Of a stretch of 64,000 nucleotides of DNA, positions 20,197 to 56,889 are shown one piece after another. The position numbers and the translations under genes were made by a program. The DNA lies in assembly GCF_058153355.1 (NCBI RefSeq), contig NZ_CM177019.1; one strand, 5' to 3'. How positions within the stretch are numbered: position 1 is the stretch's first letter; every line of letters begins with the position of its first letter. Below the pieces are notes generated by a model. It made no database searches, had not been told where the DNA came from, and saw only the letters and a list, made by a program, of their open reading frames with translations.

Positions 20197-20273
<77 letters not shown>

Positions 20274-20316
20274 TCACCGTACTGCTTTACTTCATCAAAT
20301 TTTGATTGGTTGCGGG

Positions 20317-20393
<77 letters not shown>

Positions 20394-24706: not shown

Positions 24707-24912
24707 AAAAAAAAGCACCGCAATTAGGCGGTGCTACATTAATCACTATGGACAGACAGGGTAAATGTACAGGAAGTGAAAAAAGGTAGCTTTGCTACCA
24801 TGGTCTGAATCGCAGACCAATTGCAAACACAACAACACAACATCACAACCGTAAGCCAAAAGTTCACCAGAACACGCATTCCGATAAAACTTTTCGTTCC
24901 GGCTCAGGAAGT
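24707..24912 (-). ncRNA. gcvB: GcvB small regulatory RNA, divergent from gcvA
   Basis: Minus-strand sequence from acttcctgagccggaacgaaaag through the GU-rich region gttgtgatgttgtgttgttgtgtttg to the terminator agcaccgcctaattgcggtgcttttttt matches GcvB as recalled. Confidence 0.9.
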
Positions 24913-42327: not shown

Positions 42328-42873
42328 GTGGACGATTTGACCGCACAAGCCTTGAAAGATTTTACTGCACGCTACTGCGATGCGTGGCATGAAGAGCATA
42401 AAAGCTGGCCGTTAAGTGAGGAACTGTACGGCGTTCCTTCACCGTGCATTATTTCAACTACTGAAGATGCCGTATACTGGCAACCCCAGCCGTTTACCGG
42501 GGAACAAAATGTAAACGCGGTTGAACGCGCTTTTGATATTGTGATACAACCCACAATTCATACCTTTTATACGACTCAGTTTGCCGGGGATATGCACGCG
42601 CAGTTTGGCGATATCAAACTGACATTGCTGCAAACCTGGAGTGAAGACGACTTCCGTCGGGTGCAGGAAAATCTGATTGGTCATCTGGTGACTCAGAAAA
42701 GGCTAAAACTGCCGCCCACGCTATTTATCGCGACGCTGGAAGAAGAGTTAGAGGTCATCTCGGTGTGTAATCTCTCCGGTGAAGTGTGCAAAGAGACGCT
42801 GGGAACACGCAAACGGACGCATTTAGCCTCAAATCTTGCGGAATTCCTTAATCAACTTAAGCCTCTTCTGTAA
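42328..42873 (+). CDS. syd: SecY-interacting protein Syd
   Basis: 181 aa; divergent from queF. Confidence 0.9.
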
Positions 42874-42892
42874 TCCAAATACCCCATCTTGT

Positions 42893-42910
42893 TGTGAGAG
42901 ATCTCTTACA
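42893..42910 (+). promoter_or_regulatory. UvrY (BarA-UvrY) binding palindrome upstream of csrB
   Basis: Perfect 18-bp palindrome tgtgagagatctcttaca about 170 bp upstream of the csrB start. Confidence 0.8.
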
Positions 42911-43082
42911 GACTCTGTAGGAGATCGCCAGGAAATAAGCGAATACTTAAAAAGATAAGAATCGTTATTTTCATTTAAAATCAATATATTGCTTGTTAAT
43001 TCTTAACTTTCATATGAAATTTTCCTTAAGGCATTGTCTGTAAGCGCCTTGTAAGACTTCGCGAAAAAGACGATTCTATCTT

Positions 43083-43449
43083 CGTCGACAGGGAGTCAGA
43101 CAACGAAGTGAACATCAGGATGATGACACTTCTGAAGGACACACCAGGAGGGTGTTTCAGGGAAAGGCTTCTGGATGAAGCGAAGAGGATGACGCAGGAC
43201 GCGTTAAAGGACACCTCCAGGATGGAGAATGAGAACCGGTCAGGATGATTCGGTGGGTCAGGAAGGCCAGGGACACTTCAGGATGAAGTATCACATCGGG
43301 GTGGTGTGAGCAGGAAGCAATAGTTCAGGATGAACTATTGGCCGCAAGGCCAGAGGAAAAGTTGTTAAGGATGAGCAGGGAGCAACAAAAGTAGCTGGAA
43401 TGCTGCGAAACGAACCGGGAGCACTGTGAATACAGTGCTCCCTTTTTTT
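43083..43449 (+). ncRNA. csrB: CsrB, the CsrA-sequestering sRNA
   Basis: About 367 nt with many repeated GGA-containing motifs (caggatg, aaggaca, aggatga); terminator ccgggagcactgtgaatacagtgctccc plus T run; location between syd and yqcC. Confidence 0.92.
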
Positions 43450-43494
43450 ATTCCTGCTATCCTTCGCGGCAGTTTTTCTTATTGAGGTTGCTTT

Positions 43495-43824
43495 ATGACC
43501 ACTCATGACCGCGTTCGTCTCCAGTTGCAGGCGCTTGAAGCGTTACTACGTGAACATCAGCACTGGCGAAACGATGAACCCCAGCCGCATCAATTTAACA
43601 GTACCCAACCGTTCTTTATGGACACCATGGAACCACTGGAGTGGTTGCAGTGGGTGCTGATCCCGCGAATGCACGATTTGTTAGATAACAACCAGCCGTT
43701 ACCGGGCGCTTTTGCCGTTGCACCCTATTATGAAATGGCGCTGGCGACGGACCACCCGCAACGCGCGCTTATTCTGGCTGAGCTGGAAAAACTGGATGCT
43801 CTTTTTGCGGATGATGCGAGCTAA
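43495..43824 (+). CDS. yqcC: DUF446 protein YqcC
   Basis: 109 aa. Confidence 0.85.
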   Translation: MTTHDRVRLQLQALEALLREHQHWRNDEPQPHQFNSTQPFFMDTMEPLEWLQWVLIPRMHDLLDNNQPLPGAFAVAPYYEMALATDHPQRALILAELEKLDALFADDAS

Positions 43825-49548: not shown

Positions 49549-49558
49549 GACAGAAAAC

Positions 49559-49588
49559 CAAAACCGGCTCTGTCAGGAGCCGGTTTTT
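49559..49588. terminator. Bidirectional intrinsic terminator between convergent gudD and barA
   Basis: Hairpin aaccggctc tgtcagg agccggtt flanked by A and T runs. Confidence 0.7.
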
Positions 49589-49605
49589 ACTGGATAACAT
49601 ATTTA

Positions 49606-52362
49606 TTACCCAAGAATTTTGCTGGCTTCGCGCGCTACATTATCCATCTCGTCCAACAGTTCCAGCAGCTCCGGCTCCAAATCTTCTTCTTTAGTACCGC
49701 TGCGTAGCTGTTGTTCGATCAGTTGGCAGAGATTCTTCATACGCGGCACACCGCTATAGCCGCAACTGCCATGCAGTTTATGAATCAAATCAACCAGGCC
49801 TTCCGGGTTTTCTCCAACCAGCTGTTCCTCAACTTTGTTGCGAACTTCAGGCAGGAAATCGAGTAACATTTGCAGCATATCGCGCGCTAAATCGGTTTTT
49901 CCTGCTGCCTGGCGTAGTGCCAGTTGCCAGTCGAGGGTCGCATTCGGGTTCACCACAATTTCATTGACTTCGGGGGTCACGACGCGAGAGGAAATACCGC
50001 TGCCAGGCTTGTAGCGCAACAGCAAATTATGCAATCGTTCTTCTTCAATCGGTTTCGCCAGATAATCGCTCATCCCTGCGCCAAGCAGCTTCTCTTTTTG
50101 CCCGGCCATTGCATGCGCCGTTACCGCGATAACCGGCGTTTGTTGCTGATGGGGGAGCTGGTGGATGAGTTCGCAGGCCCGAATACCGTCCATGTCCGGC
50201 ATTTGAATATCCATTAAGATCAAATCGAACGGCATCTGTTTCGCCCGTTCAACCGCCTGATGCCCGCTATCGCAAAGTTCCACATGTTGCACCATATCTT
50301 CCAGCAATGCGCCGATAAGTTTCAGGTTAGCGGGGTTGTCATCAATCGCCATGACTGTCATTGCCAGCTTACTTTCATCGGTTACAGGCAAAAGCGTGTT
50401 TTGTTTGTGATGACAAAATTCCGTCAGGGCAGGGAACAGGCGCGTAGGTGTTAATGGTTTCAGCAGACACGCGCCGATACCATCTTGCTTAAGTTTTTCA
50501 GCATTGACTTGTGCATGGCAAGGAAGTGCCAGCATCAGAAAATCGGTCATCGATACCGCTTTCGCTAATCGCTCATGTTGCATTGTTAGCGGCTCGCGGA
50601 AGGTCACCGCAATGCCTAATAACATCATGTCGTAATGCGCGGGAGGCAGCGCGGAGAACGTTGGGCTATAAACCACTTCCAGCGGCGTTTCACTTAAAAT
50701 ATCCAGCGTGCATTGCGCTGCTGCGGAGTTTGGTTCGACATAGGCCAGGCGCTTGCCGGCGAGGCACTGGGTGGATGGCCCTTCGATAATAATGTTCGGA
50801 TTCAGATCGAGATTAATGTGGAACCAGAAAGTTGAACCGCGATTCGGCTGGCTATGGAACGAAATATCGCCGCCCATTTCATTAACCAGTTTTTGTGTAA
50901 TCACCAGCCCCAGCCCGGTGCCACCATGACGGCGGGAAATACTGGCATCAGCCTGTCGGAAGGCCTGGAATAAGCGCGATTGATCGCGTTCAGGAATACC
51001 AATGCCGGTATCCCGAATCTGCACTTCAATCTGCACTTTGGTATTACTCAGCGCACGTTTTTCTACCAGAATATCAATGTTGCCATTCTCGGTGAATTTA
51101 ATTGCATTCCCTACCAGGTTAGTGATGATTTGCTGTAATCGCAGTGGGTCGCCAATTACGTTATCGGGCACGTCGCTCTTAATATTGAGCGTCAGTTCCA
51201 GCCCTTTATCGTGAGAAGAATGTGCCAGCAGGGTAACGACTTCATCCAGCGTGCTGCGTAGTGGGAATGGAATACTTTCCAGAATCAGCTTACCTGCTTC
51301 CAGTTTCGAGAAGTCGAGAACATCATTAATAATTGCCAGCAAATTATTTGCCGAACGTTCAATCGTATTCAGGTGGTCGCGCTGCGTTGGCGTTAATTCT
51401 GTTTTCAGCGTCAGGCGGGTAAAGCCAATAACGCCATTGAGCGGAGTTCGCAGCTCGTGGGACATATTTGCCAGAAACTCAGACTTAATCCGCGCCGCTT
51501 CCTGGGCACGTTTTTTCGCCAGATCCAACTCAACGTTCTGAATTTCCATCTGCTCCAGCGTTTCACGCAGATCGGACGTCGCCTGGTCGATATTGTGTTG
51601 CATCTCTTCGTGATAAGCAGCCAGCGACATTGCCATCGAGTTGATGCCATTTTTCAGCATATCCAGCTCGCCGAGCATAAATCCTTCCACTCGGCTGTCG
51701 AGTTGTCCGCGACGGATACGGTCGACGGTATTTACCATGTTGCGAATTGGACCGGTTACATCACGCATGAGTCGCCAGCCAAAAATAAGCGCAATACCGA
51801 TACAAAACAGCATCATCACGCTGGAAATAAAGATCTCTTTATATTGCTGCAAGCGAACCGATTTAAGATCCAGCTCAAGCGCAATATATCCCAACATATT
51901 TTGACTATTTTTGGCATCGCTACTGGGCGATTCGTCGGGGGAGTAACTCTCAGAAATAATCGGCGTGCGGAGGATCATAATATCGCCGTCACGAGTGACA
52001 GTGAGCTGGCGAGGAAACGGCACGTTGCTGCCGAGCTGCATTGATGAGGGATCAAGATGAAAATTGGAGGTGACAAAGAGTCGGTTATTTTCATCATAAA
52101 CCGAAATCGCGCGAACAATATCGGAATGGCGACGATGCAGCACGCTTATTAACTGACCGATAGATTCGCGATTTTGCAGGCTCATGCCATATTCAGTAGA
52201 AACTGCAAGCGGCTCAATAATGCTGGCTCCGGCATCTTCCAGTTGACGCTGCAAGTCGTTATAGCGATGCACAACGAAAAAGATACTCAGCAATAAACCA
52301 ATAAGGACGGTCGGTGCCAGGATCAGAATCATCATGCGTGCGCGCAGGCTGTAGTTGGTCAT
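49606..52362 (-). CDS. barA: Hybrid sensor histidine kinase BarA (HAMP, HisKA, HATPase, receiver, HPt)
   Basis: 918 aa; H-box SHELRTPLN; receiver and HPt domains. Confidence 0.95.
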
Positions 52363-53767: not shown

Positions 53768-56002
53768 ATGGTTGCGGTAAGAAGTGCACATATCAATAAG
53801 GCTGGTGAATTTGATCCGGAAAAATGGATCGCAAGTCTGGGTATTACCAGCCAGAAGTCGTGTGAGTGCTTAGCCGAAACCTGGGCGTATTGTCTGCAAC
53901 AGACGCAGGGGCATCCGGATGCCAGTCTGTTATTGTGGCGTGGTGTTGAGATGGTGGAGATCCTCTCGACATTAAGTATGGACATTGACACGCTGCGGGC
54001 GGCGCTGCTGTTCCCTCTGGCGGATGCCAACGTAGTTAGCGAAGATGTGCTGCGTGAGAGCGTCGGTAAGTCGGTCGTTAACCTTATTCACGGCGTGCGT
54101 GATATGGCGGCGATCCGCCAGCTGAAAGCGACGCATACTGATTCTGTTTCCTCCGAACAGGTCGATAACGTTCGCCGGATGTTATTGGCGATGGTCGATG
54201 ATTTCCGCTGCGTGGTCATCAAACTGGCAGAGCGTATTGCTCATCTGCGCGAAGTAAAAGACGCGCCGGAAGATGAGCGCGTACTGGCGGCAAAAGAGTG
54301 CACCAATATCTACGCGCCGTTGGCGAACCGTCTTGGGATTGGGCAACTGAAATGGGAGCTGGAAGATTACTGCTTCCGTTATCTCCACCCGACCGAATAC
54401 AAACGCATCGCAAAACTGCTGCATGAACGCCGTCTCGATCGCGAACACTATATCGAAGAGTTTGTCGGCCATCTGCGCGCTGAGATGAAAGCTGAAGGCG
54501 TTAAAGCTGAAGTGTATGGCCGTCCGAAACACATCTACAGTATCTGGCGCAAAATGCAGAAAAAGAACCTCGCCTTCGATGAGCTGTTTGATGTGCGTGC
54601 GGTACGTATTGTCGCCGAGCGTTTACAGGATTGTTATGCCGCACTGGGGATAGTGCACACTCACTATCGCCACCTGCCGGATGAGTTCGATGATTACGTT
54701 GCGAACCCGAAACCGAACGGTTATCAGTCTATTCATACTGTGGTGCTGGGGCCGGGCGGTAAAACCGTTGAAATCCAAATCCGCACCAAACAGATGCATG
54801 AAGATGCAGAGTTAGGTGTTGCTGCGCACTGGAAATATAAAGAAGGCGCGGCAGCTGGCGGTGCACGTTCGGGACATGAAGACCGAATTGCCTGGCTGCG
54901 TAAACTGATTGCGTGGCAGGAAGAGATGGCTGATTCCGGCGAAATGCTCGACGAAGTACGCAGCCAGGTCTTTGACGACCGGGTGTATGTATTTACGCCG
55001 AAAGGTGATGTCGTTGATTTGCCTGCGGGATCAACGCCGCTGGACTTCGCTTACCACATCCACAGTGATGTCGGACACCGCTGCATCGGGGCAAAAATAG
55101 GCGGGCGCATTGTGCCGTTCACCTACCAGTTGCAGATGGGCGACCAGATTGAAATTATCACCCAGAAACAGCCGAACCCCAGCCGTGACTGGTTAAACCC
55201 AAACCTCGGTTACGTCACAACCAGCCGTGGGCGTTCGAAAATTCACGCCTGGTTCCGTAAACAGGACCGTGACAAAAACATTCTGGCAGGGCGGCAAATC
55301 CTTGACGACGAGCTGGAACATCTGGGGATCAGCCTGAAAGAAGCAGAAAAACATCTGCTGCCGCGTTACAACTTCAATGATGTCGACGAGTTGTTGGCAG
55401 CGATTGGTGGCGGGGATATCCGTCTCAATCAGATGGTGAACTTCCTGCAATCACAATTTAATAAACCGAGTGCCGAAGAGCAGGATGCCGCCGCGCTGAA
55501 GCAACTTCAGCAAAAAAGCTATACGCCACAAAACCGCAGTAAAGATAACGGTCGGGTGGTGGTTGAAGGTGTCGGCAACCTGATGCACCACATCGCGCGT
55601 TGCTGCCAGCCGATTCCTGGAGATGAGATTGTCGGCTTCATTACCCAGGGGCGCGGTATTTCAGTACACCGCGCCGATTGCGAACAATTGGCGGAACTGC
55701 GCTCCCATGCGCCAGAACGCATTGTTGACGCGGTATGGGGCGAGAGCTACTCCGCCGGATATTCGCTGGTGGTCCGCGTGGTGGCTAATGATCGTAGTGG
55801 GTTGTTACGTGATATCACGACCATTCTCGCCAACGAGAAAGTGAACGTGCTTGGCGTTGCCAGCCGTAGCGACACCAAACAGCAACTGGCGACCATCGAC
55901 ATGACCATTGAGATTTACAACCTGCAAGTGCTGGGCCGCGTGCTGGGTAAACTCAACCAGGTGCCGGATGTTATCGACGCGCGTCGGTTGCACGGGAGTT
56001 AG
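53768..56002 (+). CDS. relA: GTP pyrophosphokinase ((p)ppGpp synthetase I) RelA
   Basis: 744 aa. Confidence 0.95.
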   Translation: MVAVRSAHINKAGEFDPEKWIASLGITSQKSCECLAETWAYCLQQTQGHPDASLLLWRGVEMVEILSTLSMDIDTLRAALLFPLADANVVSEDVLRESVGKSVVNLIHGVRDMAAIRQLKATHTDSVSSEQVDNVRRMLLAMVDDFRCVVIKLAERIAHLREVKDAPEDERVLAAKECTNIYAPLANRLGIGQLKWELEDYCFRYLHPTEYKRIAKLLHERRLDREHYIEEFVGHLRAEMKAEGVKAEVYGRPKHIYSIWRKMQKKNLAFDELFDVRAVRIVAERLQDCYAALGIVHTHYRHLPDEFDDYVANPKPNGYQSIHTVVLGPGGKTVEIQIRTKQMHEDAELGVAAHWKYKEGAAAGGARSGHEDRIAWLRKLIAWQEEMADSGEMLDEVRSQVFDDRVYVFTPKGDVVDLPAGSTPLDFAYHIHSDVGHRCIGAKIGGRIVPFTYQLQMGDQIEIITQKQPNPSRDWLNPNLGYVTTSRGRSKIHAWFRKQDRDKNILAGRQILDDELEHLGISLKEAEKHLLPRYNFNDVDELLAAIGGGDIRLNQMVNFLQSQFNKPSAEEQDAAALKQLQQKSYTPQNRSKDNGRVVVEGVGNLMHHIARCCQPIPGDEIVGFITQGRGISVHRADCEQLAELRSHAPERIVDAVWGESYSAGYSLVVRVVANDRSGLLRDITTILANEKVNVLGVASRSDTKQQLATIDMTIEIYNLQVLGRVLGKLNQVPDVIDARRLHGS

Positions 56003-56097: not shown

Positions 56098-56889
56098 ATG
56101 AATCAAATCGACCGTTTGCTCACTATTATGCAGCGTCTTCGCGACCCGGAAAACGGCTGCCCGTGGGATAAAGAGCAGACATTTGCCACCATTGCACCTT
56201 ACACCCTTGAAGAAACCTACGAAGTGCTGGACGCCATCGCCCGTGAAGATTTTGACGATCTGCGCGGTGAGCTCGGCGATCTATTGTTTCAGGTGGTGTT
56301 TTACGCGCAAATGGCTCAGGAAGAAGGGCGCTTTGATTTTAATGATATCTGCGCCGCGATTAGCGATAAGCTAGAACGTCGCCATCCACATGTTTTTGCA
56401 GGCAGTTCTGCCGAAAACAGTAATGAAGTGCTTGCCCGTTGGGAGCAAATCAAAACCGAAGAGCGCGCGCAGAAAGCGCAGCATTCGGCGCTGGACGATA
56501 TTCCTCGTAGTTTACCGGCTTTAATGCGTGCGCAAAAAATCCAGAAACGTTGCGCCAACGTTGGCTTCGATTGGACGACGCTTGGTCCGGTAGTCGATAA
56601 AGTCTACGAAGAGATCGACGAGGTGATGTACGAGGCGCGGCAGGCTGTTGTCGACCAGGCTAAACTGGAGGAGGAAATGGGTGACCTGCTGTTTGCCACG
56701 GTCAACATGGCCCGCCATTTAGGGACAAAAGCAGAGATTGCACTACAAAAAGCCAATGAAAAATTCGAGCGCCGTTTTCGCGAAGTGGAGCGTATTGTTG
56801 CCGCGCGTGGACTGGAAATGACAGGTGTTGACCTCGAAACAATGGAAGAAGTCTGGCAACAGGTAAAACGGCAGGAAATTGATCTCTAA
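56098..56889 (+). CDS. mazG: Nucleoside triphosphate pyrophosphohydrolase MazG
   Basis: 263 aa from MNQIDRLLTIMQRLRDPENGCPWD; starts only 95 bp after the relA stop. Confidence 0.93.
   Translation: MNQIDRLLTIMQRLRDPENGCPWDKEQTFATIAPYTLEETYEVLDAIAREDFDDLRGELGDLLFQVVFYAQMAQEEGRFDFNDICAAISDKLERRHPHVFAGSSAENSNEVLARWEQIKTEERAQKAQHSALDDIPRSLPALMRAQKIQKRCANVGFDWTTLGPVVDKVYEEIDEVMYEARQAVVDQAKLEEEMGDLLFATVNMARHLGTKAEIALQKANEKFERRFREVERIVAARGLEMTGVDLETMEEVWQQVKRQEIDL

Follow-up and report, generated by a model that had tools for sequence, protein, structure and literature searches.

The stretch of DNA analysed here (the window, 64,000 nt of contig NZ_CM177019.1) contains a csrB sRNA gene of 369 nt with 22 GGA motifs at positions 43084–43452 of the plus strand. 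CsrB is a decoy RNA that titrates the regulator CsrA. According to a scan of the whole window with Rfam 15, the CsrB family (RF00018) matches positions 43093–43452 of the plus strand with a score of 377.1 bits (E = 1.2e-109), the gathering score of the model being 71 bits. The match is complete, spanning model positions 1–356 of 356 without truncation, and no non-canonical pairs were flagged in it. The csrB ncRNA of E. coli K-12 MG1655 (b4408, 369 nt) aligns without gaps with 43084–43452, and the entire syd–yqcC intergenic region was aligned with that of K-12 over 621 columns with zero gaps. The family match and the gap-free alignment bear out an earlier note on this DNA, which had placed a csrB locus here; the 367-nt sRNA ending at 43449 described in that note is the same RNA, ended at the T-run 3 nt short of 43452. 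Exact identity with reference csrB, which according to the note would leave nothing unusual, was not observed, the RNA differing from that of K-12 by five substitutions (nt 52, 67, 253, 283, and 340). Two ORFs overlapping csrB, 43291–43506 on the minus strand (71 aa) and 43108–43248 on the plus strand (46 aa), were rejected as coding sequences because the region corresponds to a full-length, experimentally characterised ncRNA.

The gene order around csrB is that of K-12, namely ppnN-queF-syd-csrB-yqcC-truC-yqcA-gudPXD-barA. The upstream flank is formed by syd (42328–42873, plus strand), identified by the NCBIfam model NF003439 (286.7 bits) and by synteny with K-12. On the downstream side, an ORF of 109 aa (43495–43824, plus strand) occupies the position of K-12 yqcC; the same position holds a YqcC-family gene in E. 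coli 2013C-4282 and a gene with the PF04287 (DUF446) domain in a closely related Logan contig (L003, hereafter the sister contig). The truC gene was recognised by NF008321, and the assignments of yqcA, gudP, gudX, and gudD are probable ones, drawn from the K-12 gene order together with the matching Pfam content of the sister contig.

The barA gene, encoding the sensor kinase that phosphorylates UvrY, is located at 49606–52362 on the minus strand. Its product of 918 aa matches the NCBIfam equivalog NF008318 with 1621.7 bits (cut-off 890 bits), residues 1–917 covering profile positions 1–917 of 920. The Pfam domains sCache_4, HAMP, HisKA, HATPase_c, Response_reg, and Hpt were found in the identical protein encoded by the sister contig. 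The gene has the same relative position as in K-12, with 6154 bp between its nearer end and the 3′ end of csrB; this agrees with the earlier statement that BarA is encoded about 6 kb away in the same window.

Some other features of the window were noted as well. The barA–gudD intergenic region (49549–49605) is approximately 58 bp long both here and in the sister contig, K-12 having 232 bp there; about 165 bp of the K-12 sequence find no counterpart in the alignment and may represent a REP-type element. Further along, relA (53768–56002) directly precedes mazG (56098–56889), the mazE-mazF toxin-antitoxin module of K-12 (~690 bp) being absent; this relA–mazG junction without mazEF was found in 1006 of 5425 complete E. 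coli genomes and is thus a common variant. On the minus strand, two tandem initiator tRNA-Met(CAU) genes are present at 20197–20383 versus three in K-12 (metZ, metW, and metV), which looks like copy-number variation in a tandem array. In addition, a full-length GcvB sRNA gene is located at 24707–24912 of the minus strand (Rfam RF00022, 199 bits versus a threshold of 42).

The region upstream of csrB contains the control elements described for E. coli. The 18-bp inverted repeat TGTGAGAGATCTCTTACA, the upstream binding site of phosphorylated UvrY (UvrY~P), is present as an exact match at 42893–42910, and its centre falls between −183 and −182 when position 43084 is taken as the csrB +1. In the work of Zere et al. 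2015 (PMC4682653), ChIP-exo and DNase I footprinting located UvrY~P at the same sequence, centred at −183/−182. No chance matches to this repeat are expected, as judged from 100 shuffles of the window, and it is identical in 64 of 103 aligned rows comprising the window, species representatives of Enterobacterales, and E. coli loci. The intact UvrY palindrome reported earlier is therefore present at exactly its published position. A partially conserved extra half-site, TGTAGGAGA, follows 5 bp downstream of the repeat (42916–42924, plus strand); it is identical in K-12, and an auxiliary TGTAGGAGA element was described at this distance from the palindrome (PMC4682653).

A candidate IHF site, AATCAATATATTG, was detected as a match to the consensus pattern WATCAANNNNTTR at 42979–42991 on the plus strand (−105 to −93). 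It is located between the two published UvrY crosslinking regions, and a putative IHF site between both UvrY sites was proposed previously, the level of CsrB being approximately 10-fold lower without IHF (PMC4682653). Among promoters of the csrB/csrC type, an IHF site in this place is a feature of csrB specifically. The second of these regions, promoter-proximal and including the core promoter, corresponds by transfer of the published in vivo UvrY crosslinking coordinates (−56 to +25, PMC4682653) to 43028–43108 of the plus strand. Four differences from K-12 were found upstream of the RNA (42890, 42985, 42988, and 42992). Two of them, 42985 and 42988, fall on unspecified N positions of the IHF motif, 42992 lies one base beyond this motif, and 42890 is situated 3 bp upstream of the inverted repeat. 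Positions 42993–43134 (−91 to +51) are identical to those of K-12. A sigma-70 consensus scan of 42700–43600 revealed no promoter-like site; this result was not counted against csrB because K-12 has the identical sequence from −91 to +51, and it fits an activator-dependent promoter.

As for the RNA itself, the 22 GGA motifs in the csrB of the window occupy the same positions as the 22 of K-12, and the CsrB family has a median of 22 GGA motifs (range 16–25). The strict CAGGA[UCA]G form accounts for 8 of the 22 motifs here vs 9 in K-12. Partition-function folding in the ViennaRNA program gave a mean unpaired probability above 0.5 at 19 of the 22 GGA motifs in both RNAs, with essentially equal per-site values. 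The many GGA-containing repeats described earlier are thus borne out, and the check suggested at that time, an alignment with reference csrB and a count of GGA motifs in loop contexts, gave the same counts for the window and for K-12. The published numbering of GGA sites 1–22 and the positions of A327 and A331 map exactly onto the window.

The 3′ end of the RNA is formed by an intrinsic terminator (43417–43449, plus strand) that consists of an 11-bp stem with seven G-C pairs and a 4-nt loop (43417–43442), followed by TTTTTTT (43443–43449); a strong terminator had been claimed at this place, and the structure agrees with this. Immediately upstream lies the unstructured segment (43407–43416, plus strand) that contains the necessary RNase E cleavage site, with A327 at 43410 and A331 at 43414, as in K-12. 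Vakulskis et al. 2016 (PMC5027483) report that RNase E initiates the decay of CsrB by cutting at A327/A331, immediately before the terminator, that CsrA prevents the cut when it occupies GGA sites 20 and 21, and that CsrD counteracts this protection. Sites 20 (43379) and 21 (43397) are identical to those of K-12, as is the whole stretch 43379–43416 that comprises both sites and the cleavage segment. The sole variant of the 3′ control region is the C283U substitution beside site 19.

The frequencies of the five substitutions were assessed in E. coli by counting those complete genomes, of approximately 5400, that contain an exact copy of a short window segment spanning the substitution. States in other species were taken from 101 csrB loci of a collection with one genome per species, in which the polymorphic positions were entered as N in the search pattern; this set is a sample rather than a census, and the main representatives of E. 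coli, E. fergusonii, and S. enterica subsp. enterica are outside it. The E. coli frequencies of the window alleles at nt 52, 67, 253, 283, and 340 were 43%, 0.3%, 0%, 0%, and 33%, respectively. A csrB identical to that of the window was absent from all 5425 complete E. coli genomes, the best match (99.5%, two mismatches) being shared by five of them.

Among the records searched, every non-K-12 RefSeq E. coli record in the matches listed lacks an annotated feature at the csrB match, and K-12 carries an ncRNA annotation there. One csrB-like match belongs to a plasmid record, and 1 of 5426 E. coli genomes gave no match. The exact enterobacterial csrB 3′ block was also found in assemblies labelled as Phyllobacterium myrsinacearum (L067, a 797-bp contig) and Chryseobacterium sp. 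18061 (L102); both labels are outside Enterobacterales, and contaminating contigs in these assemblies are the most likely cause.

Three of the five substitutions occur in complete E. coli genomes. At nt 52 (43135, plus strand), C of K-12 is replaced by A 2 nt 5′ of GGA site 3, which changes CAGGACA to AAGGACA (43135–43141). The A was found in 2230 of 5189 E. coli genomes (43%) and also in E. albertii, E. whittamii, and other Escherichia representatives. The heptamer AAGGACA is already present at GGA site 9 of K-12 csrB, and AA is the second most frequent dinucleotide preceding GGA in the CsrB family. At nt 340 (43423, plus strand), G of K-12 is replaced by A in the terminator stem, where a G-U pair becomes A-U; the predicted stability of the stem is −19.9 kcal/mol versus −19.5 in K-12. 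This A is present in 1792 of 5419 E. coli genomes (33%) and in 97 of 102 aligned relatives.

The third substitution, U to G at nt 67 (43150, plus strand), falls in a hairpin loop, directly 3′ of GGA site 4, and converts CAGGAUGG to CAGGAGGG; the CAGGAGGG at 43145–43152 corresponds to CAGGATGG in K-12. The G was found in 17 of 5246 E. coli genomes (0.3%) and in the sister contig. Among species, this column is mixed (T 43, C 30, A 17, and G 7), CAGGAGG occurs in other genera also, and in the 91 full-length family members the N of CAGGA-N-G is U in 443 cases, A in 118, C in 112, and G in 17. The position of nt 67 was already called variable in the literature, and GGA site 20 (CAGGGAGCA), an experimentally confirmed CsrA site, likewise has G after GGA (PMC5027483). 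The local hairpin has a predicted energy of −5.1 kcal/mol versus −5.6 in K-12, its GGA still being unpaired with a probability of 0.92. The earlier note had pointed to repeats reading aaggaca and caggaggg and had left open whether these are standard. Both repeats exist, at 43135–43141 and 43145–43152, and both represent normal variation, AAGGACA being common in E. coli and CAGGAGG rare; judged from these comparisons, the variant repeats fall inside the normal range of the CsrB family. The account of variants in that note was thus right as to the two queried repeats but missed the differences at 43336, 43366, and 43423.

The remaining two substitutions were not found in any complete E. coli genome searched. 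At nt 253 (43336, plus strand), G of K-12 is replaced by U in the 3′ arm of the hairpin that presents GGA site 17, so that an A/G mismatch becomes an A-U pair. None of 5423 E. coli genomes has T here, and a scan of JGI metagenome contigs for the nt-253 U haplotype gave no match. This allele is common to the window and the sister contig, and the column is variable in other species. According to the folding predictions, the site-17 stem is extended from 5 to 8 bp, and its energy changes from −3.1 to −5.8 kcal/mol.

At nt 283 (43366, plus strand), C of K-12 is replaced by U 3 nt 5′ of GGA site 19, a change that is private to the window. T at this position is absent from all 5417 E. coli genomes and from the JGI metagenome contigs scanned, and the sister contig has C. 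With the position left as N in the search pattern, C was found in 102 of 102 aligned relatives from Enterobacterales; the base belongs to the conserved 3′ block of the RNA. In the Rfam consensus, nt 283 is a conserved upper-case C pairing with G290 and closing the AAGGAU loop of GGA site 19; therefore, C283U gives a U-G wobble. The 2-bp site-19 hairpin taken alone has an energy of 0.0 kcal/mol for both alleles in ViennaRNA, and the hairpin is not predicted.

The distribution of these alleles should be considered together with the position of the window within the species. The 25-kb segment 30000–54999 reaches a maximum identity of 98.7% to any of 5426 complete E. coli genomes, none attaining 99%. 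The identity of the window is 97.0–97.6% to K-12 and 89–95% to representatives of other Escherichia species; on these figures, it belongs to E. coli sensu stricto. The exact BarA protein of the window was found in only five contigs of Logan SRA assemblies. By these comparisons, the lineage is sparsely represented among complete E. coli genomes, and such sparse sampling explains the nt-253 allele without anything unusual.

Taken together, the locus is almost certainly the chromosomal csrB of a sparsely sampled E. coli lineage with the full known regulatory architecture, its mechanism being read from the E. coli literature. At the level of sequence, the regulatory architecture is demonstrably present, and the best-supported reading is that of a fully functional, canonical csrB. 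By this mechanism, BarA would phosphorylate UvrY, and UvrY~P would bind the 18-bp inverted repeat at −183/−182. IHF would bend the intervening AT-rich DNA, and UvrY~P together with IHF would activate the weak csrB promoter, so that csrB transcription presumably depends on BarA and UvrY. In the resulting 369-nt transcript, approximately 19–22 GGA motifs would be exposed, the majority of them in loops of hairpins or in single-stranded linkers, and would jointly sequester many CsrA dimers from their mRNA targets. From the near-identity to the characterised K-12 RNA (PMC5027483), we infer that the RNA of the window binds and sequesters CsrA. As for decay, RNase E would cut within the unstructured stretch that precedes the terminator, CsrA occupying sites 20 and 21 would protect the RNA from this cut, and CsrD would lift the protection.

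No GGA motif is lost and no helix is broken by the five substitutions in the RNA, all of which lie outside the promoter, the UvrY site, GGA sites 20 and 21, and the cleavage site. On the allele distribution, they are natural polymorphism, two of them being common, one rare, one lineage-specific, and one private. This polymorphism looks neutral or nearly so; strict neutrality of the change at 43366 is assumed.

The private allele could also have a technical origin, the T at 43366 having been introduced during sequencing or assembly. In favour of this, the T occurs once only, at a site that is invariant elsewhere, and the sister assembly reads C at this site with an identity of 99.98% to the window over 20.6 kb. 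However, of the four positions at which the window and the sister contig differ, three (41862, 43366, and 52871) have a base in the window that neither the sister contig nor K-12 has, these two being in agreement. At the fourth, 53249, it is the sister contig that departs from the base common to the window and K-12. Such a pattern is that of ordinary strain divergence. Moreover, the change is a C-to-T transition located outside a homopolymer. An error at this position is thus rather unlikely.

Much less credence still can be given to the suggestion that C283U, possibly with the stem-completing G253U, is functionally meaningful, altering how far CsrA occupies sites 17 and 19 or how readily RNase E reaches the region of nt 280, and hence the half-life of CsrB or its capacity for sequestration. 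The invariance of C at nt 283 in all aligned relatives, E. coli genomes, and the sister contig, its conserved pairing with G290, and the extension of the site-17 stem by U at nt 253 speak for such an effect, as do the in vitro cleavage of full-length CsrB by RNase E near nt 280 and the CsrA-induced changes at 278–281, 289, and 291 around site 19 (PMC5027483). Nevertheless, a functional C283U is improbable because the U283-G290 pairing is retained, CsrB has 22 redundant sites, and sites 18 and 19 were published as mostly dispensable for decay control (PMC5027483); besides, the predicted accessibility is the same in both RNAs (1.00 vs 1.00 for site 17 and 0.78 vs 0.77 for site 19), and no change falls in sites 20 and 21 or in the cleavage site. 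If C283U and G253U did measurably change CsrB stability or CsrA titration, the allele would be a natural csrB regulatory variant, and C283U, if real and functional, would provide a natural tool for probing GGA site 19.

With the canonical csrB as the preferred reading, the locus is already known and ordinary and contains minor variants only. Its limited significance is that a textbook regulatory sRNA locus is confirmed as intact in a rarely sampled E. coli lineage. In addition, the csrB allele frequencies over approximately 5400 genomes show that GGA motifs, the UvrY box, and decay-control elements are conserved, whereas loop-flanking and stem positions drift.

Three known loci can be compared with the csrB of the window. 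One is that of Logan contig SRR28786219_144 (L003), which is nearly identical over its aligned length and encodes the same BarA protein; it shares A at nt 52, G at nt 67, U at nt 253, and A at nt 340, and differs at nt 283, where it has C. Among complete genomes, the closest allele is that of E. coli 2013C-4282 (NZ_CP027579.1) and four other genomes, with an identity of 99.5%. The csrB of 2013C-4282 shares A at nt 52, G at nt 67, A at nt 340, and all four upstream alleles, and differs by having the usual G253 and C283; over the 25 kb around the locus, this genome is only 98.5% identical to the window and is therefore not of the same lineage. As for K-12 csrB (b4408), it differs from that of the window by five substitutions in the RNA and four upstream of it, the window states at nt 253 and 283 being absent from approximately 5420 complete E. 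coli genomes. At the same time, the two share the length of 369 nt without indels, the flanking genes and strand relations, the positions of the 22 GGA motifs, the UvrY repeat at −183/−182, the TGTAGGAGA half-site, the sequence from −91 to +51, and the architecture of the terminator.
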